Shown: piece after piece, positions 2,648-37,536 of the stretch
How the letters are laid out: every line of letters starts with the position of its first letter
Position numbering within the stretch: position 1 is the stretch's first letter
Sequence record: MZ311864.1
DNA length: 64,000 nt
Source of the DNA: Escherichia phage vB_EcoM_LNA4
Reading direction: 5' to 3' (one strand)
The notes under the pieces: model-generated
What the model was told of the DNA's origin: nothing
Seen by the model: only the letters and a program-made list of their open reading frames with translations
Database searches by the model: none
Made by a program: the position numbers and the translations under genes

Positions 2648-2654
2648 ATAACAA

Positions 2655-2676
2655 GGGGCTTCGGCCCCTTTTCTCA
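2655..2676 (+). terminator. rho-independent terminator
   Basis: GGGGCttcgGCCCC hairpin followed by TTTTCT. Confidence 0.6.
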
Positions 2677-2755
2677 TTATAAGCCTTTATAATTAAATCA
2701 CAATATGATAAAATAGCAACATCTTAGAGCAAAAATCTAGCAAGAGGAGGCGTTC

Positions 2756-4892: not shown

Positions 4893-4903
4893 GGGAGATA
4901 GCA

Positions 4904-20888: not shown

Positions 20889-23603
20889 TTAATGGCACTC
20901 GGCCCAGTTGCGGCCTGTTAAGTAAGCCCCAGTAATCATGACCGGAGAACCCATCATCTTAGCGGCTTTCTCGACACATTTCACAACCATCTCACCAACA
21001 GGGCAATACTGGATCTTGATCTTGCCGTCTTCACCAAAGATACCTTCGTAAACGGTGTTGCCTTCAGCATCTTTGACCTTTTCCCCATTCTCATCCTTGA
21101 CAGCTTTTCTCCACTCGTGACCGTCGAATACACGGCCCTTTGCTTCCCACTCTGTGACAAAGGCGGTAGCCTCTTCAAGAGTATCGAACTTCCATTTCTT
21201 CAGGTACTTTTTAGGGACCTGAAGCTGGTATTCATCGTGGTAGTAAATCAGGCGACGAACATCGTCATCATACCATCCACGCTTGATCAGTTCCCAGTGC
21301 AGCAGGATACCAACCAAGTCGAACAGAGAAGCACCACCATTCTGCTGGTAAGCATTCAGAAGTGAGTGCTTGGAGCGGGTCCAGATTTTACGACCATCTA
21401 AACCAGGAATGTAACGTTTTCCGGTTGCTTCCCAGAAGTTTTCAAGCCACTCTTTACGACCTTTCAACCCAAAGTTACTATCCCAGAAAGCATCAATTAC
21501 CGCCTGTGCTTTGTCAAGCGAGATGTTCAGCATTGCTGCAATCTTCGCTGCCTGAGCACCGTACATGATACCGTATGTTACACCCTTACCACCGTTACGA
21601 GTAACGAGAGTTCCGGACGCTTTGGTGTACGCCTCGGCGTTTCGTGCGTGAGCATCTCCACTTTCCATGATGCGGAGATATTCACCGCCGTCAAATTGAT
21701 ATGCACCCCATGCGGCGATCATACCTTCCAGGTTGGAACCGTCAATACCTACCTGATAGTATTCATCGGTGACACCCCAAAGCCCTCGCATCTCTTTACC
21801 CAGCAACACCTTAGGATCAGGTTTAGGCATGTTTGCACAAATGGTGTGCTTACAGCGGCCTGTGTTCGTGATCCCAGAGAACCTTGCTGGAAGTTTACCA
21901 TCAATCGCCAGGCGAGGGTGGTTCAACAATCCAGTGTCGTTCTTATCCTCGTCGATAGGGTCGAGAACAGAGCGACGGTTACGCAGTGACAGCCACTTAA
22001 CAATCTGTTTAGCCAAGTGAACATCAATGCGTTCAAGGTTCGGACATAGCTTACCAAAGTTATCCTTCAACTGTGGTGAGGTAGGCAACTGTCGTGCCTT
22101 ACGTCTGAACTTCTTGAATACCTCAGCATAACCCTTATCAGAGGCATGACGCAAGTCAAATTTTCGCTCAGAGATATTAAATTTTTCATCAGAGTTATTC
22201 AAGTGCTCAAGGATCAAAGACTTGTACTCAGATTCAGCAAGCTCTTCGATGTATTTACGAACTAGTTCATCCTGTTCCTCATCAGAACGGGCTTTTTTGA
22301 ACTGGTCCTTGGACACATCCTTCACACGCCACAGCGTAGGCTTCCAGCCTGCGTCCCTGATCAGGTATTTCTTGATGTCGTCCTGGTTAGAGATCTTCAT
22401 CGGAACCATCAGGTCAGGCATCTTCCCGTTTCGCAAATCCTCTTTAGCCTTCTCCATCAGGTCAGGAGGCAACGGAACAAGGGTGTTTTCCTTGTTAAGT
22501 TGAGACCGGATGAAGTCTGCAAAGTGCATAGGGTCTTCAACACCATTTGCAATGCAGTAGCGCTCTCCCGCTGCACTCACTTCTCCGTTGGTCTTAAAGG
22601 CGGTCTTAGGTGGTCCTTTGAACTCCAAAGCTTCACGATTTACCGGATAACCCAACTTGAATTCTAGCCAGTTCCAGCCGTGGTGTGAGATGTTTCCTGC
22701 ACCATCAAACGGGTTAGCTGGGAACTTTGGCTGTTGAGATTTTGTCATCTCTTTCATAGGAAGTAAAGGTTCAACCTCCTCTTCGATCTCGTGCATCATA
22801 ACATCAATGCGATCACGAAGTTTCTCAGCCTCATGCTTGTTGAACGGAACACCCTGAATCTCTTGCTCAATCATCAGGTAATCCGTCAGCATACGGCGAC
22901 GAAGAGCGTTTTTCCAGTTAATCTGACGCATACCTTCGGGTTTATCCGTATACATAAACTGCTTATCATCAGGCCAACGAGCACCAGTGGATTCATCAAT
23001 CAATGCTTTCCACGTCAGTTCGTTGATCAGAACGTCTTCCCACACACGGTTAACGTACTCCCAGAGTGGTTGGTTACGCCAGTCATCAATCTGAACTTTC
23101 TTGTTCGCTACACGATAACCCCATGCAAGTAAGCCATGCGGCCCCACACGGTCACGCTTCCCTGTCACAGGGTTCAGTACAGAATCAGGACAACCATTTG
23201 GTAACGGGCGGTCTGGGTACAGAACACGACTCATTGACAACGTATCGTACAGGTTGACCTGGGTGTCCCCGATAGTCCCCAGGCACTTAGGGTCTTTGAA
23301 CATATCGTATTCAATGCCGGACAGCTTCTTCCAGAGGCGCAGGTCGTAACCAAAGAGGTTATGACACGCAATCCCACGGCAAGTTTTAAGGAACGCCTCA
23401 AGCTCGTCATAAGAGCGGATCGTGAGATTGGCTTCCGTCTTGCTTCGTGCGTATGTTACCGCACTTTCGTACTCTGGGTGTGCAGGATCTAAAAACAGAT
23501 TCCAGTTGTTAACACCATACTCCTTTAACAGGGTGCAGTGGTACTTCGTTACCTCTTCTAACAGGCCATCGGCCTCGTTATCGAGTATAAATAAACCTTT
23601 TAT
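20889..23603 (-). CDS. family A DNA polymerase with 3'-5' exonuclease domain (T7 gp5-like)
   Basis: ILDNEADGL exo motif; RNGGKGVTYGIMYGAQ and YYHDEYQ polymerase motifs; ORF track starts at 23303 but the frame is open upstream to the exo domain with no ATG/GTG/TTG; 5' end set at AUA after AGGAGG. Confidence 0.8.
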   Translation of the reverse strand: MKGLFILDNEADGLLEEVTKYHCTLLKEYGVNNWNLFLDPAHPEYESAVTYARSKTEANLTIRSYDELEAFLKTCRGIACHNLFGYDLRLWKKLSGIEYDMFKDPKCLGTIGDTQVNLYDTLSMSRVLYPDRPLPNGCPDSVLNPVTGKRDRVGPHGLLAWGYRVANKKVQIDDWRNQPLWEYVNRVWEDVLINELTWKALIDESTGARWPDDKQFMYTDKPEGMRQINWKNALRRRMLTDYLMIEQEIQGVPFNKHEAEKLRDRIDVMMHEIEEEVEPLLPMKEMTKSQQPKFPANPFDGAGNISHHGWNWLEFKLGYPVNREALEFKGPPKTAFKTNGEVSAAGERYCIANGVEDPMHFADFIRSQLNKENTLVPLPPDLMEKAKEDLRNGKMPDLMVPMKISNQDDIKKYLIRDAGWKPTLWRVKDVSKDQFKKARSDEEQDELVRKYIEELAESEYKSLILEHLNNSDEKFNISERKFDLRHASDKGYAEVFKKFRRKARQLPTSPQLKDNFGKLCPNLERIDVHLAKQIVKWLSLRNRRSVLDPIDEDKNDTGLLNHPRLAIDGKLPARFSGITNTGRCKHTICANMPKPDPKVLLGKEMRGLWGVTDEYYQVGIDGSNLEGMIAAWGAYQFDGGEYLRIMESGDAHARNAEAYTKASGTLVTRNGGKGVTYGIMYGAQAAKIAAMLNISLDKAQAVIDAFWDSNFGLKGRKEWLENFWEATGKRYIPGLDGRKIWTRSKHSLLNAYQQNGGASLFDLVGILLHWELIKRGWYDDDVRRLIYYHDEYQLQVPKKYLKKWKFDTLEEATAFVTEWEAKGRVFDGHEWRKAVKDENGEKVKDAEGNTVYEGIFGEDGKIKIQYCPVGEMVVKCVEKAAKMMGSPVMITGAYLTGRNWAECH

Positions 23604-23629
23604 GATTCCTCCTATGCAAGGCTGCTTGA

Positions 23630-24253
23630 CTATACTGTCGCAGCGTCTTGTCTCATTTTATAAGCAATGCCTTTTAATCTCGCAACAAGATCGGGATTGG
23701 CATAATCCTTCTCTTCGTATTCCTCAACCATCTCGGCCAGCAATTTAGATTTTGCTAGCAACCATGCTTTATGGGCCTCCAACGCAGTCGAAAATCTACC
23801 CAGTGTTTTGGAAGATATCTGTGCTCGATAAAGCCCCCTATCTAAAGAAACACCCATTGGCAATCCATTCTTACTTATGGAACAGTTAACCAATAAGGAA
23901 TTTAGTTTTTTAGGGACAAAGACACAAGTATCTGGACCATAGACCTTGTTTCCCTCCACCAAGAGGTCTTTATCAAGGTCTAATCCTTCTCCGTTGAGCC
24001 ATGCCTCGTGGCATGGTTGTAACTGGACCCACTTTTTAAAACGCGAAAATACTAACCACTCTTCACAGACATAGACATCGGCATATGTTTTCCTCCTGGT
24101 TTTGAATTTTTTAGAAATACCCCTTTCCAACATACTCCTCCAAAGAGTGTGGTACGGGCATCTCCACAAGGTTACCTTTTTTCCCTCTATTGTTACTGAT
24201 TTGGTAACGGGATAGTCAGCATCGTTTATACCCATGCCACACTTATTGGTCAT
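23630..24253 (-). CDS. hypothetical protein (possible homing-endonuclease-like)
   Basis: 207-aa ORF between primase-helicase and polymerase genes. Confidence 0.4.
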   Translation of the reverse strand: MTNKCGMGINDADYPVTKSVTIEGKKVTLWRCPYHTLWRSMLERGISKKFKTRRKTYADVYVCEEWLVFSRFKKWVQLQPCHEAWLNGEGLDLDKDLLVEGNKVYGPDTCVFVPKKLNSLLVNCSISKNGLPMGVSLDRGLYRAQISSKTLGRFSTALEAHKAWLLAKSKLLAEMVEEYEEKDYANPDLVARLKGIAYKMRQDAATV

Positions 24254-24264
24254 AATAATCGTCC

Positions 24265-26280
24265 TTAGAACGGGGTATCATTCTCGAATTCTGCGGGGTT
24301 AGGAAGCTGAACAGGAGAATCCATAACAGGCGCTGGCACGTTGACCTTGCCTACCGGAGTCTCAAGTTGCAGAGATTGAATCATACCTTCAGGGCGGAGC
24401 ATAACCACCCCATCAAGTTTGAACATCCCGTCTTCCCATACCCAACCAGACGCATCAGTGAATTGTCCGTTTTCATCCATGATCATAGTGTCAGCAACAC
24501 CAAGTTTTTTGTGTGGGCGGTTCTTCATTACAACCACACGCACACGTCCACGAGAACGGTCTGGCAGTTCTTCTGGTTCAACACCTAATACAATCCAGGA
24601 TAATTGCTCCAGTGCAGCAGAACCACGCAGGTCTTCTTTACGTACAGGATACCAGAAAGGCAACATGTTGCCGTCTTTGTCCTTCGGTAGCTGAAGTTCC
24701 TTACGCTTCATGTGGCTAATGCTGAGAATGAACACATCGTACTGCTTACAGAATGCCGCAAGCTCGGTCATGATGTTGTCCAGATCTCGACGTTCGTTAT
24801 CCGACTTAAGGCCAGAGATAACCATGCTGAGGTGGTCAAGGATAATCCACTTACAACCATCCAGGAATACCATCTGCTTCAGCTTCTGAATCAACTGGTC
24901 CGTAGGGATAGAGCCGAAGTGATCAAAGATCTTGATCTTGTCTTCCTTAATCCATCGTTGGTGAATCTCCAGGTGCTGCTCTTCGGTCAGGAACTGCTCA
25001 GGGTCTGCCACGAAAGCTTTAGGGTCAACCTTCAACTCCTCAGCGTACAAGCTGTTTACAGATTCTTCCTCGTCCTCTTCCAGACGGATGATCGCAACCT
25101 TTTCATGTTCAGTCCAACCATCAAGACGAGGGATGCTCATATCTCGAAGGTAGTTCACAATGGCATACTCGATCTTACGTGAGATTGTTGACTTACCACC
25201 ACCAGAAGGGCCAGTTAGTGTCCACAACTCACCAGTACGAGGACCTTTTGTTAACTCATAAAGACGAGGCATACCAGGTAACGGGACACCATCTTTCTTC
25301 TTCTTGCGAAGGTTTTCGATGGTAATGTTGCTCAGGCTGATCAGTTTGTCAGGGACATAGCGATCTTCTGCCTTGGAGAACATGTTCCAGATCTCACGAC
25401 CCTTACCCGCATCGTACATGTCACGAACGTCTTTAACCCCGGAAGGATCATTTCGTTCATTGGGGTAACGTGCCACAAAGATGTTGTCTGTCAGCAGGAA
25501 TGCTGCCACATCGTCTGTTGCTTCTTTACCTTTCTTGACCTTACGTTCCTTTTCCAGAGCGGTTGCTTCATCGTTATCAAAACCGAGAACAACCTTCTCA
25601 TAGCCACGAATGAACTTCTCGTTATTGGCAAAGGTATCTACTGCGTTGGCTGTGCCACAGTTTAATCCGACAAACGGTAATGTCGGAACACCTGCAATCT
25701 CTTCACCGTTCTGAATAGAGGCGATACCTTTCAGAACGCTTGCAGCCCAATCCTTAACACCCTTCGGTGCATTAGGGCTTGCTTGCAGAGCTTTCACGAA
25801 CTCAAAACCTGCCTGCCAACCAGCGGTAACATCCCCCTCGCCCTCTACAATGAAGATCTGTTTACGACCTGCGCCCATAGCGGCTTCGTGTTGACCGAAG
25901 AACTGTGAAGCGGCCTTAACAGTCCCCACAACAGAAAAGTGACCTTTCTTCTCTTTCGGCAGGGTCCAGTCACGTTTTTTATATCCAGTCAGCTTACCGT
26001 ACTTGTCGTAATATGGCAAATAGGTGGCTGTGATCGTCACACCGTCACTTGGGGATACGGATGAACGGATCTTAAAATACTTTGCTGCGTCGAGAGAGAG
26101 GCTCATTTCAGGAACTGGCAGAATGCGGGTGCCATTGACTACAGATTCCAGGGTCTCTTCTTCACGTTGCTGATAACTCACTCTTCCTCCACGATTGCCT
26201 TTACTTCCAAAATTCTGCGCTTTCGGGTTCTCCTGTCCACCTTGTCGGTAAGCAGCCCAATCCGGACCATTTCCCATCAT
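24265..26280 (-). CDS. primase-helicase (T7 gp4-like: Toprim-like N-domain + DnaB-like helicase)
   Basis: Walker A GPSGGGKST, DnaB-like motifs, acidic C-terminus ending DTPF; no N-terminal Cys4 zinc finger. Confidence 0.75.
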   Translation of the reverse strand: MMGNGPDWAAYRQGGQENPKAQNFGSKGNRGGRVSYQQREEETLESVVNGTRILPVPEMSLSLDAAKYFKIRSSVSPSDGVTITATYLPYYDKYGKLTGYKKRDWTLPKEKKGHFSVVGTVKAASQFFGQHEAAMGAGRKQIFIVEGEGDVTAGWQAGFEFVKALQASPNAPKGVKDWAASVLKGIASIQNGEEIAGVPTLPFVGLNCGTANAVDTFANNEKFIRGYEKVVLGFDNDEATALEKERKVKKGKEATDDVAAFLLTDNIFVARYPNERNDPSGVKDVRDMYDAGKGREIWNMFSKAEDRYVPDKLISLSNITIENLRKKKKDGVPLPGMPRLYELTKGPRTGELWTLTGPSGGGKSTISRKIEYAIVNYLRDMSIPRLDGWTEHEKVAIIRLEEDEEESVNSLYAEELKVDPKAFVADPEQFLTEEQHLEIHQRWIKEDKIKIFDHFGSIPTDQLIQKLKQMVFLDGCKWIILDHLSMVISGLKSDNERRDLDNIMTELAAFCKQYDVFILSISHMKRKELQLPKDKDGNMLPFWYPVRKEDLRGSAALEQLSWIVLGVEPEELPDRSRGRVRVVVMKNRPHKKLGVADTMIMDENGQFTDASGWVWEDGMFKLDGVVMLRPEGMIQSLQLETPVGKVNVPAPVMDSPVQLPNPAEFENDTPF

Positions 26281-26286
26281 CTCTCC

Positions 26287-26433
26287 TTAAAATGGCTTAA
26301 CTACCACAGCTACATACCAATTACCGTCAACGGTGATTCCACCACTAATGTGGTAACCCTTTTCAAAATAGGCATTCAGTCGGTCTTCAAGATCCTTGAT
26401 GTCACGACACTGAAGGATTTGTACATTTTTCAA
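26287..26433 (-). CDS. small hypothetical protein (48 aa, TTG start)
   Basis: Protein-like ORF after AGGAGGG; not in ORF track (short). Confidence 0.3.
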   Translation of the reverse strand: MKNVQILQCRDIKDLEDRLNAYFEKGYHISGGITVDGNWYVAVVVKPF

Positions 26434-26441
26434 CTACCCTC

Positions 26442-27134
26442 CTACTTGTTTTCTTGATAGAAAGCCTCTGCAAAACCACGAGGCGTACAGCTACGGATGT
26501 TCTTAGTCTTGATAGACTTGCCACCACACTTCTTCCATCCGGGATTATCTTTGTGCAATTCCTTCACAGGAAGCTTTGTGGGCTGTTTTGCACCATTACC
26601 CATCCAAATACACGTCTTCTTGTTGTAAGCGTCTTGTGGAGGGTATACATGCGGATACAGAGGGTGTACGTCATCAGGAGGAAGATACCCGCCGTAATCC
26701 TTTGGATCAAACATGTAATCTGGTTTGCGATACATCGACGAGAGAACTCCAACCGGGTTCTCAAAAGCCCAAGGAACGCCGCATTCATTACCCAATTTCT
26801 CTACCAGCAGGCATAACTCCATCGCTTCCTTCTGGAAGTTAGGGTTAGCGGCGCGTTTTTTAGCCCAATGTCTTGAACCTGCATTGGTTAGGTGAGTACA
26901 CTCTGGGAAGCCAAAGACGAGGTGAACACCTTCACCAACCATCTCTGCGATCTCTGATGCTTGTTCGTTGGTTTTGTCATGGAAAAACCACATACCAACC
27001 TTAACCAGATTCCCTTCCCGGTGAATGCCGGGGGAATGCTGACCATCAAATGTCCAGACTTCATAGCCAGCCCTTAACCAGGGCTGTGCCATTACAGAGG
27101 TGTAATCATAAAGAATTATGATCTTCTTTGTCAA
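26442..27134 (-). CDS. C5-cytosine methyltransferase-like protein (degenerate motifs)
   Basis: FPEC and ENP at motif IV/VI-like spacing; no clear AdoMet GxG motif. Confidence 0.35.
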   Translation of the reverse strand: MTKKIIILYDYTSVMAQPWLRAGYEVWTFDGQHSPGIHREGNLVKVGMWFFHDKTNEQASEIAEMVGEGVHLVFGFPECTHLTNAGSRHWAKKRAANPNFQKEAMELCLLVEKLGNECGVPWAFENPVGVLSSMYRKPDYMFDPKDYGGYLPPDDVHPLYPHVYPPQDAYNKKTCIWMGNGAKQPTKLPVKELHKDNPGWKKCGGKSIKTKNIRSCTPRGFAEAFYQENK

Positions 27135-27144
27135 TCAACCTCCA

Positions 27145-27408
27145 TCAATGAAGAACTCGGACAACAGTCCCGTTCTCAATTTTATATTTTGCCTCTGCGG
27201 TAACCTGATGGTCTGGCTCGCCATTGATCATCATCGCGATGTTATGGGTTGTTCTGACTAGGGTGTAGTTCAGATACCCGTCTGCTTCATGCTGTGATAC
27301 GATGGTAAAACCTTCGTCCAGCAGTTCAGCCAATTCTGATTCGATATCCGCTTTTTCTCGCTCACTGATCTTGAACTCAACCAGACGGACAGTGTTCTTT
27401 CCAGCCAT
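27145..27408 (-). CDS. hypothetical protein
   Basis: 87-aa ORF. Confidence 0.45.
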   Translation of the reverse strand: MAGKNTVRLVEFKISEREKADIESELAELLDEGFTIVSQHEADGYLNYTLVRTTHNIAMMINGEPDHQVTAEAKYKIENGTVVRVLH

Positions 27409-27689
27409 TAAAAGCTCTCCTCTCGTTCAAAGCAACCTTCAATTTCTGCATTACGCAGATGTTCACGTAGGTGATGGTACAGGACATCATTTGGAATGTC
27501 AACGTAGATCTGGGCGGTGCTTTTGAATACAGCATAATACTCTAAATCCTGAAAACCGTTATAGTCCCAGTCGCTCTCTTTACTGTAGAAATCTGGCTTC
27601 TGAACAGTATAAAGTGCTTCGACCACCACAGCACCGTGATCAGGATGATCGTACTCAAACTCAATCTCTACTTTCTGTGGTTTAATCAT
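27408..27689 (-). CDS. hypothetical protein
   Basis: 93-aa ORF. Confidence 0.45.
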   Translation of the reverse strand: MIKPQKVEIEFEYDHPDHGAVVVEALYTVQKPDFYSKESDWDYNGFQDLEYYAVFKSTAQIYVDIPNDVLYHHLREHLRNAEIEGCFEREESF

Positions 27690-28183
27690 ATTGCCATCTC
27701 CAGATCTGACTTCAGTTGCTCATTCTCTTCAATCAGTGCCTTGATGAAGTAAATCAGGTGAGTTGCTGCACTGTTGCAACCATCCCGGTTAAGCTCGTCG
27801 CTTACTCGTTCTTTTACTTCCTTCCCGTATCCGCTGAGGTCTTCCTTTAAATAGGTACTCACAGCCTTCCACGCATTGCTTTGGCTAACGCGAGAGTCTA
27901 ACTCTTTCAGCAAACGCAAGATATTCTCAGGACAAGCCGTGGCGATGTAGGTTGCATCAACATCGTTATTCCACTGGGACAGATTACCTGTGCTCGCATG
28001 ACGTACAGCAGGCCCCATGTTCGGATCAGTAATGAAGACAGTCTCCATATTCTTATCATCGGAGAAAGCCACCATTGAATGACCGTGCGAATCGATCCAC
28101 CACTGCCCCGGTGTTGCATCCTTTGCCAGACGCTCAAGGTCTTCACGGAGCTTCTCGATTGAACGTTCCTTATTCATTATCAA
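27686..28183 (-). CDS. hypothetical protein
   Basis: 165-aa ORF. Confidence 0.45.
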   Translation of the reverse strand: MIMNKERSIEKLREDLERLAKDATPGQWWIDSHGHSMVAFSDDKNMETVFITDPNMGPAVRHASTGNLSQWNNDVDATYIATACPENILRLLKELDSRVSQSNAWKAVSTYLKEDLSGYGKEVKERVSDELNRDGCNSAATHLIYFIKALIEENEQLKSDLEMAI

Positions 28184-28493
28184 CGCCCTCGTAACGGGAC
28201 ATCGTTAATTGTGTGATGCCAAGAGCCACAGGCTCAGTAGTATCCACCACGAAGGTAACAGTCAGGTTATCTGTAGATTTAGAATCACTCAGATCCACAA
28301 CGATAAAGTCACCCACTTCCGGTGCGTCAGCGCCCATGTCGAGGAAAACAACAGCCTCAGCATATTCACCATCACCGATCACACGGAGCGTGATATCGTT
28401 ACCAGGCCCACGGGTGGTAAAGTCGTATACACGCACCTGCTTAGGCGCTTCATCTTCTTTGGCAAACAGCCAGTTAAACAGCTTTTTCAGCAT
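28170..28493 (-). CDS. hypothetical protein
   Basis: 107-aa ORF. Confidence 0.45.
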   Translation of the reverse strand: MLKKLFNWLFAKEDEAPKQVRVYDFTTRGPGNDITLRVIGDGEYAEAVVFLDMGADAPEVGDFIVVDLSDSKSTDNLTVTFVVDTTEPVALGITQLTMSRYEGVDNE

Positions 28494-28653
28494 TCTTCCG
28501 CTCCTTCAGTTCATTCTCGATATCGTTCAAACGATTCCATGCCTCAAGCTCTGCCTGTTGCATCTCGTCGTGATAATCGCGAGCAACGTCACGCAGTTTT
28601 AATAGCTTCTCTGTGGAAACCTTGCTCAGGTCAGTAAAGTCTTCAACCTGCAT
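28474..28653 (-). CDS. small coiled-coil protein (59 aa)
   Basis: GAAGGAG RBS then ATG; not in ORF track (short). Confidence 0.35.
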   Translation of the reverse strand: MQVEDFTDLSKVSTEKLLKLRDVARDYHDEMQQAELEAWNRLNDIENELKERKNAEKAV

Positions 28654-28654
28654 T

Positions 28655-29164
28655 TTATTCTCCTTCTTTGTTTACAAGACCATCATCAAATGGAATACCG
28701 AAGTATTCACTATTCAGGTCATCGCAGAATTCTACCCATTTCTTCTGGGATTTAATACCGCTACCATCGTTGCCCCATTTCTTGTCACGCTGGATAGCGA
28801 CTTGCTGGACAATGCGGTTAGTCAAGGCGAACGCCATACGATTGCTCATACGACGAAGTGGGTTGCCACGATAATCACCAGCATTGTGCATATGCACCGC
28901 ATCTTCCAAGGAAAAGTGCATCGGAAGAGAGGTGATATCGTTGTTGAATGCACGGACGTAGCCGAAACGACCATCGGTGATGTTTGGGTACTCAGGCAAG
29001 CGACGAGGGACGTAACCAAAGGCAGACATCATCTCGTCAAGAGAGGCCATTTGGATGTGAACGGTGTCCATTGCCTTTTCTGCACGGAGACCGGACATTG
29101 AGTTCCAGTCTTCAATTTCCTTACGGAATTTTTTAGCCAACTCTAAACGAGAAAATGATGCCAT
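28655..29164 (-). CDS. hypothetical protein
   Basis: 169-aa ORF. Confidence 0.45.
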   Translation of the reverse strand: MASFSRLELAKKFRKEIEDWNSMSGLRAEKAMDTVHIQMASLDEMMSAFGYVPRRLPEYPNITDGRFGYVRAFNNDITSLPMHFSLEDAVHMHNAGDYRGNPLRRMSNRMAFALTNRIVQQVAIQRDKKWGNDGSGIKSQKKWVEFCDDLNSEYFGIPFDDGLVNKEGE

Positions 29165-29175
29165 GATTTTATCTC

Positions 29176-30486
29176 CTATTTGCCAGGGAAAGTTCTTTCG
29201 TAGAAGTCTACAATACGTTGGTCAACAATGATATCTTTTTCTTTGACCTTACGCAAGAGTCTTAAACCGTTTGCAGTCGTAGCACGGCTAAAGGCGACGT
29301 ATGCCATACCGGGTGCGAATGCTCCATACCCAAAGTCTACATTAAGGAGCGGCAATGTCAAGCCCTGTGCCTTATGAATTGTCACCGCCCATCCTAAACG
29401 GATAGGGAGTGCTCGATATTCACCAATGGTGATCTTCTCAAGCTCTTCGGTGATAGTCCCATCAGTATTACGGACCTTGATCGGGTTGTACTCAACGTTC
29501 TCCCACACATGCGGTTCAACATCAACAACTTTACCACACTCAAGGCGCACCTTAACACTCTCTTTTCCAAGCTCAATCACCTCACCGCGCGAGCCGTTAA
29601 CATACTCTGGCTCTTCAAACCCCTTCGGGTCGTTCACGGTGATCATTACCTTGGCACCCTCCTTCAGATATAACTCCTCCGGGACAGGTTTTTGGGTGAA
29701 ATCGCCAGTCTTTTTCGCAGAATAAAGCACAGGAAGTCCCGGAATTTCTTCAAAGCGCTTCTTGTTTACCTTATCCGCAGCAGCGTTGGTGGATGTGATC
29801 GTAATCGCATCTGGGATTGCCTGACCACCACGGTAACAGACACCGTTAAGTTCCCTCACAATATCAGGAATACGCTGTCCACGACGAAGACAGTTAAGCA
29901 ACCCTGAGAAACGCGTGCTGTTCTGGCGATAAACCTTCTCAAGAATAACCGGGTAAGGGTTAAGCTCTTGCCACGTATCGGAGAAGCAACACAATTCCGT
30001 TGGGTGGAACTGGAAGTACATTTCCTTTTCCGCCTCTGTGAGGACAGGTGGGTTCTGGAAGAAGTCCCCAAACATGCAAATCTGCAAACCACCGAAAGGT
30101 TTGTTTGGTTCTCTACGTGCAATACGGCACTTCATATCCATTTCCCAAAGCTTATCAGCACGAAACATACTGATCTCATCAATGATTATGATCTTTAATG
30201 CTTTGCTTTTCAAAAGTTTTTTTACTTTAGGCTTTAATTCTTCCGCTTCTTTCTTTGTCGCAACACCCATTGATAATCTAAACGCACGGTGAGCCGTCAT
30301 ACCATCAACGTTAATGGCAGCAGCCCCCGTAGGGGCTACAGTTAGAACGGAACCTGCGTAAAGAGATTGGATGGTCTTAATGGTGTAGCTTTTGCCACTA
30401 CCTCCGGGACCCGTAACGAATACGTTGTCACCGGACATGATAGCACCAAGGGCTGCTTCAACGCCCACGCCAAAATCAGACATCAA
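29176..30486 (-). CDS. Dda/RecD-like superfamily 1 helicase
   Basis: Walker A VTGPGGSGKS and APTGAAA motif. Confidence 0.7.
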   Translation of the reverse strand: MMSDFGVGVEAALGAIMSGDNVFVTGPGGSGKSYTIKTIQSLYAGSVLTVAPTGAAAINVDGMTAHRAFRLSMGVATKKEAEELKPKVKKLLKSKALKIIIIDEISMFRADKLWEMDMKCRIARREPNKPFGGLQICMFGDFFQNPPVLTEAEKEMYFQFHPTELCCFSDTWQELNPYPVILEKVYRQNSTRFSGLLNCLRRGQRIPDIVRELNGVCYRGGQAIPDAITITSTNAAADKVNKKRFEEIPGLPVLYSAKKTGDFTQKPVPEELYLKEGAKVMITVNDPKGFEEPEYVNGSRGEVIELGKESVKVRLECGKVVDVEPHVWENVEYNPIKVRNTDGTITEELEKITIGEYRALPIRLGWAVTIHKAQGLTLPLLNVDFGYGAFAPGMAYVAFSRATTANGLRLLRKVKEKDIIVDQRIVDFYERTFPGK

Positions 30487-31763
30487 TCCTCCTTAGTTTC
30501 TTCTTCCAGGTAGATTTGTTCCAAGATTTCACCTGCTGCACCAATTACCAGAATATCTGGTGCGCCCACTGGCTTGTCCACACCCGTCAACACCTCATAA
30601 CGACAGCAACGGCACTTCTGCTGGTTGTAGTCGTAAGGAACACTTACAACGTCAGCCGGGTTAACAGCTACCTCGATAAGGCTGTTACCAACAAAGCCGC
30701 CTGCGTATTCCAGAGAGGCAATGTGCAGACCTTGGCTACAGGAGACACTTGGATTATCTTCAACCATGTTTCGTGGCATAGAAATAATCTGGCCTTTGTA
30801 GTTTGGAACCTTCTTGGTGCGGGTATCGCGAGGACCATCAGCAGTGTTGGTGATCTTCTTGTACGCCTTAACGTCACCATTTTCAAGGATCTCAAGGTCG
30901 TTGTGCTGAATAAAATCATACAGCATCTTCACAGAGGCATAAGACGGGTTGTGCATCAGCTTCTGCATGAACTTCACATAACGCTCATCGAAAGTATCAT
31001 TGTTGATATCGTTGAGGATACGTTTTGCAAGAGTGGTCTCTTGCTTCTGCCCGTGCCAGTACAGAACACCATCCAATAGCTTCAGGTCTGGACCGAGATC
31101 AACGACCTTCTCTGCCTTCGCTTCCTTCCCTGCTTCGATCAGGGCGATAGCCCCATCAATGTCGCCCTCAATCAACAGCAGACCGACATCCGGGAAGATA
31201 TCGTTGTCACGGTTAATCGTGTGCTGAGTACCATCAGGCATAGAGATGCAGACGTTACCGGGAGTCATGATGACCACAGGGTCTTTCTTCTCGGTGACCT
31301 CTTCGTCGAAATATGTTTTCGGTGCAGACTCTTCAACAACCACACTCACAGGGACCTTGTAAGGCTCCGGCAATAGTGTGACCGTTGCTTCGATATGCAG
31401 GTCGGTTACTTCGAAAGTGACTTCCCAGCGTTTTCCCTGCTTACCAAGATCCTTAACAACACCGTAGTTTACCCCCCGGTCACCCTGGGCGTGGTCAATA
31501 ATCTTAGCATTCTTTTTGCCCTTTGCAAAGTCACGGGCCTCACCACGACTTCCGAAGAACATAGAAGACCGAGCAGGAACGGCTTCAGAGGTGAAGCTCA
31601 TGTCAACTTCTGGGGGCTTAGAAGCCCCTTGACTATCTTTTGGTACAACCATCCAACGGCCTTCTGCCAGCACCGCTGGTGATACACCACGGTCTACAAC
31701 CTTCATACCGTTGAGGGATGCGTACTCACGCGCCTTACTGCGGGATTCAAAAAGATTACTCAT
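30483..31763 (-). CDS. rIIB-like protein (putative)
   Basis: 426-aa ORF directly downstream of the GHKL ATPase gene with ATGA overlap; assignment by position. Confidence 0.3.
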   Translation of the reverse strand: MSNLFESRSKAREYASLNGMKVVDRGVSPAVLAEGRWMVVPKDSQGASKPPEVDMSFTSEAVPARSSMFFGSRGEARDFAKGKKNAKIIDHAQGDRGVNYGVVKDLGKQGKRWEVTFEVTDLHIEATVTLLPEPYKVPVSVVVEESAPKTYFDEEVTEKKDPVVIMTPGNVCISMPDGTQHTINRDNDIFPDVGLLLIEGDIDGAIALIEAGKEAKAEKVVDLGPDLKLLDGVLYWHGQKQETTLAKRILNDINNDTFDERYVKFMQKLMHNPSYASVKMLYDFIQHNDLEILENGDVKAYKKITNTADGPRDTRTKKVPNYKGQIISMPRNMVEDNPSVSCSQGLHIASLEYAGGFVGNSLIEVAVNPADVVSVPYDYNQQKCRCCRYEVLTGVDKPVGAPDILVIGAAGEILEQIYLEEETKED

Positions 31764-33754
31764 TTATTTTCTCCTTTGCTATCAATAAGTTGTCTATACT
31801 CAACCATCTCTGGTGAGTTAAAGTACTTCAGGTCAATGTATTTCAGAAGAGGATATTTTGCCTTTTTAGCAGCAAGCAAATTCTTCCCGATTCGCATACG
31901 TGCCTTGACGATGCGCTCCGCTTTTCTTTCAATATCATAGTAACCCATGATGTTAGAGAGGGCTGAAGACATATTGACCTTTTGTACATATTCAGGGTCT
32001 TCTTTCACTCCAATCCCAAAGACAGCAAGACAACTTACCATGTACCGATAATCAGTTGTCTTAGTAAATTGTTTGAGATGATACTCCATAAGATTTGTTT
32101 TAGCAAGCTCATAAAGGTCATCACGGTCAATGATTCGCGTTTCTTCTGGCAACCAACCTGAACGATTCAATGGAACGATGTACAGTTTTCCTGTTACACC
32201 AAGTTCTTTCAGGAAGGTTTCAGACTGTGTATAGCGATGAGTCAGCGAGGAAACAGACCCCAGTGGACAATCACCTTTCACCTGACCACCGCTGTAAATC
32301 ATAGCTGCGTCAATGTCATCAAACTGAGCACGAGAAATCCTTGTTTTGTGGACAGACCCATCTTGTTCAATAATCCAAACAGCGTGACCAGGCTCATACA
32401 GGCTGTAGCCACCATACTTTCTATCACCCTTCTCTACAGGCCGTTTTTCAAGCTCTGATAACTTAAAGACCATTCCCTCGAAGAAGGGATCTTTCAGAAT
32501 ATCTAAGGCTTCATAGCGTTCAGTAACAAATACACGCATATTTCTTTTTTCAGACAACCACTGACACTTAGACCGGATGCACCTATGATCATCATCATAA
32601 ACCAAAGGGTATCCGTTCATAAGCTCAGAATAGCCGTAATTTTGTTCTTTTAGCCGTTTGCTACCTTTTCCACCAAAGGTGATGCAGTCTTCTATTCTGA
32701 ATGTTCCAAAATGCTCTTTGAACTTGTCAGCGATGAAACCAGAACCAAATCGGTTAGAGAAATATCCGCCGACACGGTTCATATAATCCAAAACTTCTTT
32801 TAGGGTCGTGAATTGTTGAAGTTCTTTAACCACCTGTTCCCCACGCTTTTCAATTGCCTGGGTAACAAATCTCTCAAGGCGGTCACGAAATCCGCGATCA
32901 TTCTTACCTTCAATAGTCCATTCACGCCCAGGGTTTACGTCACAATCCCCAATAGGAATGGAAACCATCATCATAGGCCATTCTTTGTTAGTGGACAGGA
33001 AATTAGACAGATAAGGTTGTTGCCCCATAACCACAACGCTGTCGGAGTTTTTGGATACAGACCCATACATTTCCAGCAGCCAACCACTATCTTTATCTTC
33101 ATAACGGTACTGCACCGGGTAGGTACGGTCGTTAAGTTCAGACGTGACGAATGGGTCATTGATCTCAAACGGAAACTTAGCGTAACGCAGGCATTTTACA
33201 ATGGCCTGACGATATTTGTAAGTCTCAGAAGGATCGACGTTGAATTTGATTTCAACACCATTTTCTTCTTCTGTTTGTGATTCGTGCAGAGGAACAACCT
33301 CCGGGATACCCTCGTTTTTGTGGACAGAGTAAACAGTTTTAATTCCGTCCTTAATCGACGTGACCGTAAACATATCCGTCACAGTAAACGGGGCTTTAGA
33401 CCCGATACCTTTTGCGCCAATCAGATCGTTAGAATCACGCTTGGTGGAAGACCCCAACATCATAAAGGTCTGGGTGACCATATTGAAATCCATACCAAGC
33501 CCTGAATCACGCACAGAATACCACGGTTCGAGATCGGTTGGAGAGTGGATGACAATCGCTTTCTCACGGCACCCAGCCTCCGTGTGTGAGTCTACAGCGT
33601 TGAACAGCGGTTCACGCACCGCAGCCAGAACTTTATCATTGTAAATACCGTCGATCAGGATGCTGAAAGTCTCAGCATTGATTGCGATCCCTGCCTGATA
33701 GCGCTGTACGCTACCCGTTACCTGGACCTTCTCTTCGGCACGTTGGATTATCAT
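31760..33754 (-). CDS. rIIA-like GHKL-family ATPase
   Basis: GHKL motifs (LFNAVDSHTEAG, VRDSGLGMD, IGAKGIGSKAPF); no Toprim motif. Confidence 0.5.
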   Translation of the reverse strand: MIIQRAEEKVQVTGSVQRYQAGIAINAETFSILIDGIYNDKVLAAVREPLFNAVDSHTEAGCREKAIVIHSPTDLEPWYSVRDSGLGMDFNMVTQTFMMLGSSTKRDSNDLIGAKGIGSKAPFTVTDMFTVTSIKDGIKTVYSVHKNEGIPEVVPLHESQTEEENGVEIKFNVDPSETYKYRQAIVKCLRYAKFPFEINDPFVTSELNDRTYPVQYRYEDKDSGWLLEMYGSVSKNSDSVVVMGQQPYLSNFLSTNKEWPMMMVSIPIGDCDVNPGREWTIEGKNDRGFRDRLERFVTQAIEKRGEQVVKELQQFTTLKEVLDYMNRVGGYFSNRFGSGFIADKFKEHFGTFRIEDCITFGGKGSKRLKEQNYGYSELMNGYPLVYDDDHRCIRSKCQWLSEKRNMRVFVTERYEALDILKDPFFEGMVFKLSELEKRPVEKGDRKYGGYSLYEPGHAVWIIEQDGSVHKTRISRAQFDDIDAAMIYSGGQVKGDCPLGSVSSLTHRYTQSETFLKELGVTGKLYIVPLNRSGWLPEETRIIDRDDLYELAKTNLMEYHLKQFTKTTDYRYMVSCLAVFGIGVKEDPEYVQKVNMSSALSNIMGYYDIERKAERIVKARMRIGKNLLAAKKAKYPLLKYIDLKYFNSPEMVEYRQLIDSKGENK

Positions 33755-33765
33755 CCGTTTCTCCT

Positions 33766-33939
33766 CTATTTGCAGTTATTTATGGGGTTTCTTTTGCGAG
33801 CCTTCCGCACGATGTAGATACCTGCCAGCAGGCCAAGAGCGTAAGCTCCAGACACTTGCTCCCAGAACATCCATTGAGTTAAAGACAGTATCACAAGATA
33901 TGGGATAATGCAAACACAAAGTAGCAAAATACTCTTCAT
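33766..33939 (-). CDS. small membrane protein (holin-like candidate)
   Basis: 58 aa from internal ATG with GGGAG RBS; hydrophobic core then basic tail. Confidence 0.4.
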   Translation of the reverse strand: MKSILLLCVCIIPYLVILSLTQWMFWEQVSGAYALGLLAGIYIVRKARKRNPINNCK

Positions 33940-33943
33940 ACGT

Positions 33944-34474
33944 TCAGGCTCCCTGGGATTCAGGCTTTTCTTTGTAGAAAATGTGGTTATCAATCCTTAC
34001 AGTGCGAATCATAACTTTCGTCCAGTATGGCTTAACCTTCTTTGAGTGATAATACGTAGAACCCTTAGTGATGTCAAGGGCATCGTAAACAATTTTATTG
34101 GTCGTGTGGACTTTGATCAGAAATGAGGCGAACTCCTTTGCCTTTTCCCAGCGTTCCTTTTCATACACTTTGAAAGAAGAACTTCCGGATGTCCAGGAGA
34201 ATTGTCCAGACTGATAAACGATCTTCTTCACGGTGTGTGGGAACTTATCGTTGTCCTTGCGGTTCAGGGTAACAAAGGCGATAGACATCATCCCAGAGTC
34301 GCTCTCACCACGGGCTTCACGATACATATTACATGCCAAGATATTTACCGCTGAGTCATCTTTTTTGCAGAGATGAATCACCTTGGGCTTCTTTGCGTTG
34401 TCTTTAGCCAGTACAGGCGTGGTGGCTAGAGAAAAAGCACAGGCGGTTGCCAGAATAAGGTTCTTTACTTTCAA
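33944..34474 (-). CDS. SleB-like cell-wall hydrolase with signal peptide
   Basis: NMYREARGESDSG...AFVTLNR...VYQSGQFSW motifs; signal peptide; start placed at TTG after GGAG. Confidence 0.65.
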   Translation of the reverse strand: MKVKNLILATACAFSLATTPVLAKDNAKKPKVIHLCKKDDSAVNILACNMYREARGESDSGMMSIAFVTLNRKDNDKFPHTVKKIVYQSGQFSWTSGSSSFKVYEKERWEKAKEFASFLIKVHTTNKIVYDALDITKGSTYYHSKKVKPYWTKVMIRTVRIDNHIFYKEKPESQGA

Positions 34475-34488
34475 ATTACGCTCCAAAT

Positions 34489-34513
34489 TAAAAAGCCCCA
34501 GGGTAGGGGCTAT
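34489..34513 (-). terminator. rho-independent terminator
   Basis: AGCCCCtaccctGGGGCT hairpin then TTTTT on minus strand. Confidence 0.5.
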
Positions 34514-34516
34514 CAA

Positions 34517-34873
34517 TTAACGGCGGGAGATGTCGCCTGAGACAGTTTTTACATTGCCTTCTATTGTTTTTGCAAGTACATCTCCGGACACAGTGGTAAC
34601 GTCACCAAGTGCGCCGTTTTCGACATGAACATCACCAGAGGTGGTTTTGATATTACCAGCTACTGTGCCGTATACGTTGACATCGCCAGATACCGTGCTG
34701 ACCCCTTTAACGTCGCCGTTAATCACGACAGTGATGTTCTTTTCTTGTGTGGTGTGGATGATCTGTCCGTTAAGGATAATGTTATCCCCGTCAGACGTGA
34801 TATGAACATCCCCGGCCACAATACTACCATTGAGAATCTTGCCGTTAATGGTAATAACATTAGAGTTTACCAT
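34517..34873 (-). CDS. bactofilin-like beta-helical repeat protein
   Basis: Repeats of GDV.V.G.V.G....SGDV; start at ATG after AGGAG. Confidence 0.5.
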   Translation of the reverse strand: MVNSNVITINGKILNGSIVAGDVHITSDGDNIILNGQIIHTTQEKNITVVINGDVKGVSTVSGDVNVYGTVAGNIKTTSGDVHVENGALGDVTTVSGDVLAKTIEGNVKTVSGDISRR

Positions 34874-34901
34874 ATTTTCTCCTCTTAATAAATCCTTAAG
34901 C

Positions 34902-35081
34902 TTATCCACGCATCGGAACAATTGGCTCTAAATCCTCTTCTGGGTACAACCGCCAGCCCAGCATATCAAAAGAATAACACCAACCATCTTGCCATTGCAC
35001 ATCGGTGATTCTCATAACCCTGCCAGTGTGTTTGTCACGAACAAAGTGATTAACTTCGAACTTCGGTTGTGTCTGCTGCAT
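34902..35081 (-). CDS. hypothetical protein
   Basis: 59 aa from internal ATG with GAGGA RBS. Confidence 0.4.
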   Translation of the reverse strand: MQQTQPKFEVNHFVRDKHTGRVMRITDVQWQDGWCYSFDMLGWRLYPEEDLEPIVPMRG

Positions 35082-35235
35082 GAATGATCCTCGCTTTTTG
35101 AACTGAGAAGACAAACGTACCATGTTCCTCTACGTATTGTCTACCCATTTCTTCATCTTCGAAGATAAGAGTATCAACCTCAGACTTCACTGGCCTGTCC
35201 TTAACAGGCCGTGAGGTGCATACGATTAGCGCCAT
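35050..35235 (-). CDS. hypothetical protein
   Basis: 62 aa; ATG overlaps stop of RNA ligase gene (TAATG). Confidence 0.35.
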   Translation of the reverse strand: MALIVCTSRPVKDRPVKSEVDTLIFEDEEMGRQYVEEHGTFVFSVQKARIIHAADTTEVRS

Positions 35236-36281
35236 TACAGAGGACTCTCGTTCAGCTTCTGCATGTACCAACCACGAGATTTGTTGCTGATGAACTTCGC
35301 AACATCCTTCATGGTCAGGGAGTTAGCTTCCAGAACATCGCCTTCTTCCTTGTTGATGTCACGGCTAACCCAGGCAATGAACTCACCGATCTTAGATTGG
35401 TCGAGACCAACTTCACCAAGAGCCTGCTCAAGGCGGTTCTCAGTCACAGCGTACTCAACGAACTCACGCATGTTCTGGAGCCGTACCGGGTCAACCTCTG
35501 CCAGGGTTTTAACCTTGGATACAGAGTGCTTCTCACCCTTCACTTTGAACCACAGGCCGGAGTCTTTAGCCAGTTCTGGTTGCAGCGGGGACCAAACGAT
35601 ACCCTCACCTACACCCTCAACACCAAAGTGTTTACCAACCGGGCAGGATGCTTCCACCTGCATCGTCAGGGTTGTCAGATCGTTCTGTACCTGCTCAGGT
35701 TCATTGAACGGAATATTCACGGACCAGAAACCAAAGTCAAGAACACTGAAGATCCGCTCTTGTGGCAGGCCAATGCCGTACTGGAAGTTTGGTGGCATCC
35801 AGTTCAGGGCGTTGCCCTCTTCATTGCGACCAACAGCAACACGGAAGATCGTGAAGAAAGGTTCAACCTCACTTACAGCCACACCTTTCTGGATACCACG
35901 ACCAGCCCACTCACCAGCGATCTCAACCGGGAAGGAGAACGGTGTGCCGTTGCATTCGCATAGGTATTTAACCTGCTCCAGAAGTTCTTTGGTATCTTTA
36001 CGCACCATGAACGCAGCAAAGCCGTTGTTGTCGTCACCGACTTGGACGATACGTTCTTTGGACTGGAAAACAACCTCATCTTCAGAGTGGAAGACAATGC
36101 TGCCATTGGTCCCGTGGATCTTAACCGTACCAATGTACGGGATCAGGTACTGATCCGGCGCAACAACCTTACGCTTGATGTTACCATTCTCATCAATCCC
36201 GTCAAAGGTCAGACGATCATGGATTGCCTTAATCACTTGGCGGAACTGGTGAGTGCTTGGGTATTTAATAGGTTTAGTCAA
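35235..36281 (-). CDS. RNA ligase (Rnl2-like)
   Basis: Motif I VKIHGTNGS and GEWAGRGIQKGV match the T4 Rnl2 pattern; start set at TTG after AAGGAG. Confidence 0.7.
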   Translation of the reverse strand: MTKPIKYPSTHQFRQVIKAIHDRLTFDGIDENGNIKRKVVAPDQYLIPYIGTVKIHGTNGSIVFHSEDEVVFQSKERIVQVGDDNNGFAAFMVRKDTKELLEQVKYLCECNGTPFSFPVEIAGEWAGRGIQKGVAVSEVEPFFTIFRVAVGRNEEGNALNWMPPNFQYGIGLPQERIFSVLDFGFWSVNIPFNEPEQVQNDLTTLTMQVEASCPVGKHFGVEGVGEGIVWSPLQPELAKDSGLWFKVKGEKHSVSKVKTLAEVDPVRLQNMREFVEYAVTENRLEQALGEVGLDQSKIGEFIAWVSRDINKEEGDVLEANSLTMKDVAKFISNKSRGWYMQKLNESPL

Positions 36282-36663
36282 CTTTAGACTCCTTTTTAGG
36301 TGCAATCGCTTGTGTGATCAGGTTGTCGATGTCGTCAACCCACTCTGGGGTGCGTAGGAACAGCATCAGATTCATTGTCTGAAGCAAATACGCACTGTTT
36401 TGTGTGATCGCATAGATATCGTAACCATCTACCAGCAGTCGTTCAACTGTCGATGTACGGATGGGCTTATTATCAAAGCCACGGCCTTGATGATCACGAC
36501 CATCTAAAAAACCACAAATACAACGAGGCCAGACCTCTACGTGGGGACGGGCATTAACCACCACCCCAGCAAAGAGCTTACCACCGATGAATTTTGGTTC
36601 AGGAACAGTCTGTGCCAGACGAATTGGATCACCAACACCAACCTCAGATTTACTCATTGTCAT
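36274..36663 (-). CDS. hypothetical protein
   Basis: 129 aa from ATG after GAGGGG RBS. Confidence 0.45.
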   Translation of the reverse strand: MTMSKSEVGVGDPIRLAQTVPEPKFIGGKLFAGVVVNARPHVEVWPRCICGFLDGRDHQGRGFDNKPIRTSTVERLLVDGYDIYAITQNSAYLLQTMNLMLFLRTPEWVDDIDNLITQAIAPKKESKVD

Positions 36664-36922
36664 TACTTTTCCCCTCAAATATGTATCGTACAAGAAGTTC
36701 ACTAATCTGAACTATGACATAACGCGTTTGTTCATCGAACTTAACCTTCACCGGGCGATCCCCGTTATTCGGATCATAGACAGTCTTGGAGCAAAGATTC
36801 CATGCGTTCTTAGCCGCCCCGGTGGTGACCCACCCAATCTTTGTACCGTTCGAGTTCCAAAGCTTACCCTCTTGAGTATCGTATATGACGAATACTGAGT
36901 CAAGGTGTTTTTTAGACTTCAT
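36650..36922 (-). CDS. hypothetical protein (paralog of next gene)
   Basis: About 90 aa; shares pattern with 36912..37154 product. Confidence 0.4.
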   Translation of the reverse strand: MKSKKHLDSVFVIYDTQEGKLWNSNGTKIGWVTTGAAKNAWNLCSKTVYDPNNGDRPVKVKFDEQTRYVIVQISELLVRYIFEGKSNDNE

Positions 36923-37154
36923 GAGCAACAATTCCGTCTGGTGTGATCGCCACCCGGACAATCTTAAAGCGTGTTTGCTCACCGAACTTACAGCGAAGCG
37001 GATTCTTCGCACTGGAAGAAAATGCGGTCTTAGCAATCCCAGAGGATGAATATGCTACACGGTTCATACCAGAGAACCAGAAAGAGTTGCTTTCAGTATC
37101 AAGAATAGCAAATAGCTCTTTCTGTTGCTCTGCGGATTTATGCTTGTAGTACAT
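36912..37154 (-). CDS. hypothetical protein (paralog of previous gene)
   Basis: 80 aa; GGAGG RBS. Confidence 0.45.
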   Translation of the reverse strand: MYYKHKSAEQQKELFAILDTESNSFWFSGMNRVAYSSSGIAKTAFSSSAKNPLRCKFGEQTRFKIVRVAITPDGIVAHEV

Positions 37155-37354
37155 TATTCCTCCAGTTTCCAGCCGCGTTTATTAAGCCACTCGTCGATTT
37201 GAATCCCGTTGCCATCACCACTTGGCTTCTCAGCACCAAGCAATAACACAACAAAACTCTGTCCACGAGGGGCTGTATATGAGAACACTGTGTTCCCAAC
37301 ATGAAGATCGATCTTTTTGGTATGTGCAACCATACCGTCTTTTAGTTCAATCAT
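37154..37354 (-). CDS. hypothetical protein
   Basis: 66 aa from internal ATG overlapping upstream stop (ATGA). Confidence 0.4.
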   Translation of the reverse strand: MIELKDGMVAHTKKIDLHVGNTVFSYTAPRGQSFVVLLLGAEKPSGDGNGIQIDEWLNKRGWKLEE

Positions 37355-37536
37355 TTCCAGTTCCCATTGAAAAGCCGCAGCACCAAGAGGTTCATGAAGT
37401 ACAGGGGCCAAAGCAGGCCCATGAACACACCACCAAGAAGATCCATAGTGTCTAATCTCCAGAATTGCTGCGCTCTTTTCATGAAGATATAAAACCCTAC
37501 AAATGCGAACAGAAGATAGGTAATCCCAACCATCAC
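37351..37536 (-). CDS. small membrane protein
   Basis: 61 aa, two hydrophobic helices. Confidence 0.45.
   Translation of the reverse strand: MMVGITYLLFAFVGFYIFMKRAQQFWRLDTMDLLGGVFMGLLWPLYFMNLLVLRLFNGNWK

Follow-up and report, generated by a model that had tools for sequence, protein, structure and literature searches.

In Escherichia coli, the only confirmed near-cognate start codons are the AUU codons of infC, which encodes IF3, and of pcnB (10.1101/063800); an ATT start is also indicated for ebpA of Enterococcus faecalis (PMC4447247). In E. coli reporters, AUA, AUU, AUC and CUG initiate at approximately 1–2% of the AUG level (range 0.02–3%) (10.1101/063800). Changing AUG to AUA in rIIB of bacteriophage T4 costs approximately 85% and leaves approximately 15%, the HB-3 murein hydrolase retains 7.5% with AUA, and within an optimised initiation region an AUA mRNA is as active as an AUG mRNA in vitro (PMC5499595). 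In enterobacterial systems, essential genes very rarely have a natural AUA start. Here we describe the DNA polymerase gene of Escherichia phage vB_EcoM_LNA4 (sequence record MZ311864.1), analysed in a stretch of 64,000 nucleotides (the window). Its exonuclease domain is not preceded by any canonical start codon, and we conclude, with a probability of roughly 0.8, that the polymerase is translated from a near-cognate AUA codon at 23603–23601.

As in infC and pcnB, a conserved near-cognate AUH start follows a Shine–Dalgarno (SD) sequence in a gene whose level matters (10.1101/063800; PMC5499595), and initiation with fMet-tRNA is presumably sensitive to IF3 proofreading in the same manner. The present gene differs in encoding a phage DNA polymerase, in having AUA in the lineage of the window and AUU only in Mydovirus, and in that no IF3 feedback loop is implied. 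The T4 rIIB mutant and HB-3, the latter with AUA or AUU, resemble the locus in that AUA initiates on phage mRNAs in E. coli at the above fractions of AUG; those are laboratory mutants and constructs, whereas the AUA described here is natural and is kept in several phage species. Near-cognate starts as such are thus already known, and what is new is a conserved instance on the polymerase of these phages, for which no description of a near-cognate polymerase start was found in the literature on them.

The polymerase frame lies on the minus strand and is open from 23657. The features of the gene and its start region are as follows.

20889–23603, minus strand: DNA polymerase coding sequence as proposed, family A, T7-like, with an ATA start and 904 codons plus stop; of the same length as the ATG-initiated orthologues, and identified from Pfam, PHROG and PDB matches.
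23601–23603, minus strand: ATA, proposed near-cognate initiation codon, aligned with the ATG, ATT or TTG of relatives.
23608–23613, minus strand: SD sequence AGGAGG, followed by the 4-nt spacer AATC (23607–23604); kept in all close relatives.
23658–23660, minus strand: in-frame TAA closing the polymerase frame on its upstream side, from the reading of the frame.
23301–23303, minus strand: ATG of Met101, the first in-frame canonical start, here an internal methionine; a residue within EYDMFKDP, kept in all relatives.

Downstream of the TAA, 118 sense codons pass without ATG, GTG or TTG until the ATG of Met101, as the preliminary description had maintained; its coordinates all hold on the minus strand, including those of the AGGAGG placed 4 nt upstream of AUA, and the "about 100 codons" that it gave for the open frame ahead of the first ATG are exactly 100 when counted from the ATA and 118 when counted from the stop. 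The ATA is followed in frame by IKGLFILDNEADGLLEEVTKYHC, and the coding sequence ends with the stop at 20889. For random codons, the probability of a start-less leader of this length is (61/64)^118, or approximately 0.004. It is the longest such leader among the window's frames of at least 150 codons, the others being at most 82 codons long, with shadow frames as the runners-up. In the window, the 25 nt on the 3′ side of the SD are free of canonical starts in every frame. The spacing of 4 nt between GGAGG and the AUA is the modal spacing among window genes (5 of 16). No SD sequence precedes the ATG at 23303, and an exact-sequence look-up of the 804-residue product that would be initiated there returned no record.

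The codon was then compared across relatives. By megablast, the window belongs to a Vequintavirinae phage of the Seunavirus/Mydovirus group, related to Salmonella phage PVP-SE1. The comparison of orthologous phage starts that had been proposed as a check finds ATG, ATT or TTG at the position of the window's ATA. In EC152, 4MG, GAP31, PVP-SE1, EspYZU15 and SPLA5a the codon is ATG, in the context AGGAGG-N3-ATG-AAAGG, and the homologous start sequence of these six relatives is CTTGCATAGGAGGA(A/G)C-ATG-AAAGGTTTGTTT. The annotated polymerase comprises 904 residues in EC152, 4MG and GAP31, the ATG relatives for which the whole gene was retrieved. As the starts of the ATG relatives align with the ATA, and 904 codons run from the ATA to the stop of the window's gene, the ATA is the positional homologue of their start codon. 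Relative to the ATG allele, the window allele has A in place of G in the codon and an additional T in its spacer (AATC instead of AAC); the spacer is 3 nt long in ATG alleles and 4 nt long in ATA and ATT alleles.

An identical AGGAGGAATC-ATA-AAAGG sequence is present in FENT2 (Spain), SSE121 (USA), KE23 (Kenya), three phages from India (SalP219, NINP13076 and phage 40) and the metagenome contig JACCDR011913344. In the Mydovirus lineage, ATT stands at the same place in Ro1, KB57, AV124, K45PH128C2, a 147,443-bp IMG/VR contig (L008) and several metagenome contigs. When 50,697 phage records were searched by blastn with the start region (78 nt), more Klebsiella Mydovirus records were retrieved with the same ungapped 90.9% match, in which no feature is annotated over the matched start region; these probably carry ATT too, the codon itself having been read in the named genomes. 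TTG is found at this place in three more distant relatives (L014, L015 and L018), which indicates that weak start codons recur in this polymerase gene family. In the ATT lineage, a C-to-A change creates an in-frame TGA four codons upstream of the ATT; read-in from upstream is therefore not possible there, and the start must fall between that stop and the Exo I motif at codon 8. Salmonella phage 41, an UNVERIFIED record full of indels, was left out of the comparison, and two IMG/VR sequences that matched the SD/ATA pattern (L023 and L028) did so by chance and are unrelated.

The gene encodes a family A DNA polymerase, as shown by matches to Pfam PF00476 (DNA_pol_A) at 35.4 bits (cutoff of 34.3), to PHROG 8888 and 17 (DNA polymerase), and, in a phmmer search against the PDB, to chains of T7 gp5 with an E-value of 1.6e-20, mostly over the palm and fingers. 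The exonuclease stretch, in which residues 5–177 align with T7 residues 2–145, is weak alone (13.8 bits, i-Evalue of 0.098), and its motifs match.

23574–23582, minus strand: Exo I residues D8-N9-E10 of the 3′–5′ exonuclease (DxE motif; D8 at 23582–23580, E10 at 23576–23574), aligned with T7 gp5 D5/E7; kept in all relatives.
23343–23345, minus strand: Exo II aspartate D87 of the NxxxxD motif in CHNLFGYD, aligned with T7 FHNGHKYD (D65).

The assignment of ILDNEADGL (codons 6–14) to the extreme N terminus of T7-type polymerases was thereby confirmed: the phmmer alignment pairs residue 5 with T7 residue 2, so that D8 and E10 match the Exo I residues D5 and E7. The polymerase thus resembles T7 gp5 in belonging to family A and in having Exo I within the first 10 residues. 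It differs in its length of 904 residues, compared with 704 in T7, and in a sequence similarity that is distant, and T7 gene 5 starts with AUG. Initiation at Met101 would remove both Exo I and Exo II, the D87 codon being located before the first ATG. A candidate for Exo III (YxxxD), EYVNRVWEDV, was spotted by eye outside the HMMER alignment.

Pairwise Nei–Gojobori estimates among six ATA/ATT genomes give a ratio of nonsynonymous to synonymous substitution rates (dN/dS) of 0.013–0.073 over codons 2–100, and when the ATA lineage is compared with the ATT lineage, synonymous sites are near or beyond saturation. Codons 2–100 are thus under strong purifying selection in the ATA/ATT genomes, which argues that the N-terminal codons are translated; an untranslated remnant would behave otherwise. 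In comparative terms, then, the codon is orthologous to the ATG starts and conserved, it lies at a workable distance from an SD, no canonical start would spare the N-terminal residues, and the codons downstream are held by purifying selection, as would be expected of a near-cognate start.

Most likely, the ATA and ATT codons are real weak start codons that gene-finding programs overlook. From established knowledge of bacterial initiation, the most likely course is SD-directed initiation with fMet-tRNA at the AUA: the 30S subunit would be positioned by the strong AGGAGG 4 nt upstream, the initiator fMet-tRNA would pair with AUA, leaving the third base of the codon mismatched, and the protein would start with (f)Met, carry the whole exonuclease domain and comprise 904 residues. 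As a near-cognate codon against which IF3 discriminates, AUA would probably initiate less efficiently than AUG. Such weaker initiation would set a low, possibly regulated, level of the polymerase, and a low level, or a response to IF3 or to cell physiology, may be the reason for which the weak codon is kept.

Several points weigh against this reading. The reporter values suggest that AUA may be very weak, which would be surprising for an essential replication enzyme; the strong SD at the preferred spacing, together with the dependence of AUA activity on context, makes useful expression plausible. At codon 4, SSE121-type genomes and contig L030 have an in-frame TTG placed 13 nt after the SD (TTA in the window and in FENT2), so that the use of AUA is not forced in every ATA genome. 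An in-frame GTG, chosen by some annotators, lies 13 codons upstream in the SSE121 subgroup, within a hairpin that precedes the SD, and is not present in the window or in FENT2. Both codons could contribute in SSE121-type phages. No proteomic or ribosome-profiling data on the start were found in the literature on these phages.

Two elements lie upstream of the SD.

23621–23644, minus strand: hairpin GCUGC-GAC-AGUAUA-GUC-AA-GCAGC directly 5′ of the SD, conserved and covarying across relatives.
23630–24253, minus strand: free-standing HNH homing endonuclease of 207 residues, between the primase/helicase and the polymerase; PHROG 953 (HNH endonuclease), E-value of 1.3e-78.

Termination–reinitiation is a known bacterial mechanism, and the AUA might work only through such coupling, with ribosomes that end at the HNH UAG (23632–23630) opening the hairpin and re-initiating at the SD and AUA. 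The geometry is suitable, since the UAG falls within the loop and inner stem of the hairpin and precedes the SD by 16 nt and the AUA by 26 nt. However, the ATA is also present without this HNH gene in FENT2, SSE121, phage 40 and contig L030, where the preceding gene stops well short of the hairpin. Coupling is therefore not the general mechanism, although it could add to expression in the window, and as the sole basis of AUA function it is unlikely. It is quite unlikely that initiation takes place at another in-frame non-canonical codon, several of which lie close to the SD. The preliminary description had suggested AUA or AUC as non-canonical starts; the AUA at 23603–23601 stands, at the ATG position of relatives, whereas the AUC at 23606–23604 is 1 nt from the SD and is GTC in Ro1. 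Another AUA, at 23615–23613, shares nucleotides with the SD and is not preceded by a separate one, the AUA and CUC at codons 6–7 are at least 19 nt from the SD, and only the codon at 23603 aligns with the ATG and TTG starts of relatives. A start at Met101, or at an internal TTG in relatives, with the exonuclease part not made and surviving as a decaying remnant, would agree with the internal starts that open reading frame (ORF) finders and GenBank give: TTG at codon 25 in Ro1, KB57 and AV124, and TTG at codon 26 in FENT2. The annotators' starts disagree with one another, as TTG at codon 4 is given in SSE121, SalP219 and phage 40, and GTG at −13 in KE23 and NINP13076. The dN/dS values over codons 2–100 contradict a decaying remnant, the catalytic residues of Exo I and Exo II are intact and conserved, and the ATG at 23303 is without an SD, all of which makes this explanation very unlikely.

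Recoding, which had been offered as a further possibility, could in principle supply a canonical start, through a group I intron that contains the HNH gene and follows a tiny exon, or through a frameshift from an overlapping ORF. Precedents exist in the polymerase genes of the Vequintavirinae phage CB7, which carry HNH-containing, splicing-competent introns (PMC7344957), and in SSE121, in which an HNH gene lies inside the polymerase gene. Against this, the ATG relatives need neither recoding nor splicing, the helicase stop and the HNH start are just 11 nt apart, and the same ATA is found in genomes that lack the HNH gene. Rfam searches detected no intron or other RNA family in the whole window at the gathering score, or in 23300–24500 at E-values up to 1, and neither a group I intron core nor its flanking exons were recognised. 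No programmed frameshift was identified either: the HNH frame ends 26 nt upstream, and the gene is missing from other ATA genomes. Given that the 25 nt after the window's SD contain no canonical start in any frame, and given the TGA upstream of the start in the ATT lineage, recoding or splicing is highly improbable. A sequencing or assembly error, also raised initially, is so improbable as to be nearly negligible. A single A/G difference would indeed restore ATG, but the ATA with its AGGAGGAATC context recurs in six other phage isolates and one metagenome contig, the ATA and 4-nt spacer being found in at least seven independent sequences (Spain, USA, Kenya, India and the metagenome), and ATT is found in many more.

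Other candidate causes of the unusual codon were rejected. The HNH endonuclease is not a required cause of ATG loss, by target-site immunity or co-conversion: ATA or ATT occurs without it in FENT2, SSE121, phage 40, KB57 and AV124, and a different endonuclease at the same spot lies beside both an ATG allele (GAP31) and an ATA allele (KE23), which likewise speaks against such a requirement. A historical role of the HNH gene in spreading the 5′ end of the polymerase gene is not excluded. No phage tRNA for AUA was detected: the 64,000-nt window contains no tRNA genes, and none of the 25 tRNAs found by ARAGORN in FENT2, the closest ATA relative, has a UAU anticodon. The two CAU tRNAs of FENT2 do not have the hallmarks of an initiator, namely a 1:72 mismatch and three anticodon-stem G:C pairs. 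As for better mRNA accessibility as compensation in ATA/ATT alleles, the difference is small and unconvincing (mean unpaired probability of 0.61–0.73, versus 0.49–0.58), and the folding of 23560–23670 is not more stable than that of shuffled sequence (z = −0.53). As a separate observation, the tRNA cluster of FENT2 (L038, 26994–33932) includes one odd call with a 2-nt anticodon at 29062–29131, and several of its tRNAs are missing from the GenBank annotation, including the CAU tRNA at 26994–27069.

The start codon forms part of a haplotype block that comprises the first 60 nt of the polymerase gene and the SD spacer (window 23543–23603, compared with L001, L008, L020, L022, L005 and L002). Two types of this 5′ cassette exist, one with ATG, a 3-nt spacer and Thr7, and the other with ATA or ATT, a 4-nt spacer and Leu7. 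Between the ATA and ATT lineages, identity is 90–95% in the first 60 nt and 70–80% further in; between the window and the ATG phages PVP-SE1 and EC152, it is 0.82–0.85 in the first 60 nt and 0.90 from nt 63 onward. In neighbour-joining trees the ATA/ATT genomes do not form one clade. The similarity in the first 60 nt conflicts with the gene tree, a pattern that suggests either that the 5′ end has been exchanged by recombination or that synonymous sites are under a constraint specific to each haplotype; on these alignments, recombination appears to carry the cassettes between Seunavirus and Mydovirus genomes. At a larger scale the window is a mosaic of EC152-like and FENT2-like parts. The 5′ part of the polymerase gene (22900–23620) is 93–94% identical to the ATA-type Enterobacter phage FENT2, and 26300–38000 (the rIIA/helicase/ligase side) is 90% identical to the ATG-type Enterobacter phage EC152; the helicase–HNH–polymerase junction is 87% identical to Raoultella phage Ro1 (megablast).

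The hairpin directly 5′ of the SD has a two-tier architecture that is kept in relatives down to approximately 64–65% protein identity: an inner stem of 3 bp closes a loop of 6 nt and is joined to the outer stem with a bulge of 2 nt on the 3′ side. The loop is mostly RRUAYA (GAUACA, GGUACA, AGUACA or AGUAUA), with GUUACA in EspYZU15 and AAGAUA in L018 as exceptions. The outer stem occurs as GGUGGGC/GCCCACC, GGUGGGU/ACCCACC, GAUGGGC/GCCCAUC, GGACGGGC/GCCCGUUCC and GCUGC/GCAGC, and the inner stem as GAC/GUC, GUC/GAC and GGC/GCC. In the window, the last codons and TAG stop of the HNH gene run into the hairpin, and the outer stem there is GCUGC/GCAGC instead of GGUGGGC/GCCCACC. Changes on both sides are seen in 6 of the 10 pairs, 87% of the alignment cells are paired, and no shuffle reached the covariation score. 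The unpaired cells fall in five outer-stem pairs, with 3–4 rows each, and are attributed mostly to mis-registered rows, including the shorter stem of the window and Ro1. No U-run follows the hairpin, no further copies that would suggest a regulon are present in the window, and no Rfam family matches it.

We regard the hairpin as a candidate translational operator or processing site. It resembles the operator of gp43 in T4 and RB69 in being a hairpin with a conserved loop that adjoins the ribosome-binding site of the phage's own polymerase gene (PMC3014915). The T4 system differs in that gp43 is a family B enzyme, its operator loop is –UAAC– rather than RRUAYA, and the architecture is different too. 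The conserved hairpin is what a gp43-type autogenous operator would possess, and binding and repression by the polymerase may be proposed by analogy with gp43. A more speculative and, in our view, doubtful proposal is that the weak AUA or AUU start and the hairpin together constitute a translational control module, carried in two exchangeable 5′ cassettes and acting by gp43-like autogenous repression or as a timer sensitive to IF3 or cell physiology.

Upstream of the HNH gene lies the remaining neighbour.

24265–26280, minus strand: primase/helicase, with Pfam DnaB_C and AAA_25; annotated so in relatives.

The spacer between helicase and polymerase is an endonuclease hot spot, occupied at 23630–24253 on the minus strand in the window, at 2608–3231 in Ro1 (L001), at 2671–3168 in L004 and at 1–262 in L033. 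The 207-residue HNH protein is found there in the window and in Ro1, and a different endonuclease in GAP31, KE23, SalP219 and NINP13076. EC152, 4MG, SSE121 and PVP-SE1 have no endonuclease in this spacer, and the HNH gene is missing in FENT2 also. The annotation of SSE121 divides the polymerase gene (L022, 2528–5574) into two parts on either side of an HNH endonuclease gene (4704–5105), an arrangement that may represent an intron or a split gene, as in phage CB7 (PMC7344957). The primase/helicase of Ro1 (L001, 591–2596), a single gene of approximately 670 residues in relatives, is annotated as two overlapping coding sequences, 591–1106 and 1061–2596; this may reflect a frameshift or a sequencing error in the record.

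Translation table 11 includes ATA and ATT as start codons. An automated ORF caller applied to the window would drop 100 residues together with Exo I and Exo II. The GenBank and RefSeq starts at codon 25 or 26 in Ro1, KB57, AV124 and FENT2 likewise yield an annotated protein without the Exo I proofreading residues. Recognition of the AUA and AUU starts would give a proofreading polymerase its correct annotation throughout a group of phages, among them Klebsiella and Salmonella phages that are being isolated with therapy in mind. The natural series of ATG, ATA, ATT and TTG alleles, in one conserved context beside a candidate regulatory hairpin, would be useful for studying start-codon choice during infection. 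For the biology of these viruses, the finding would mean that a near-cognate AUA or AUU start has become fixed on the replicative polymerase of a whole phage group.

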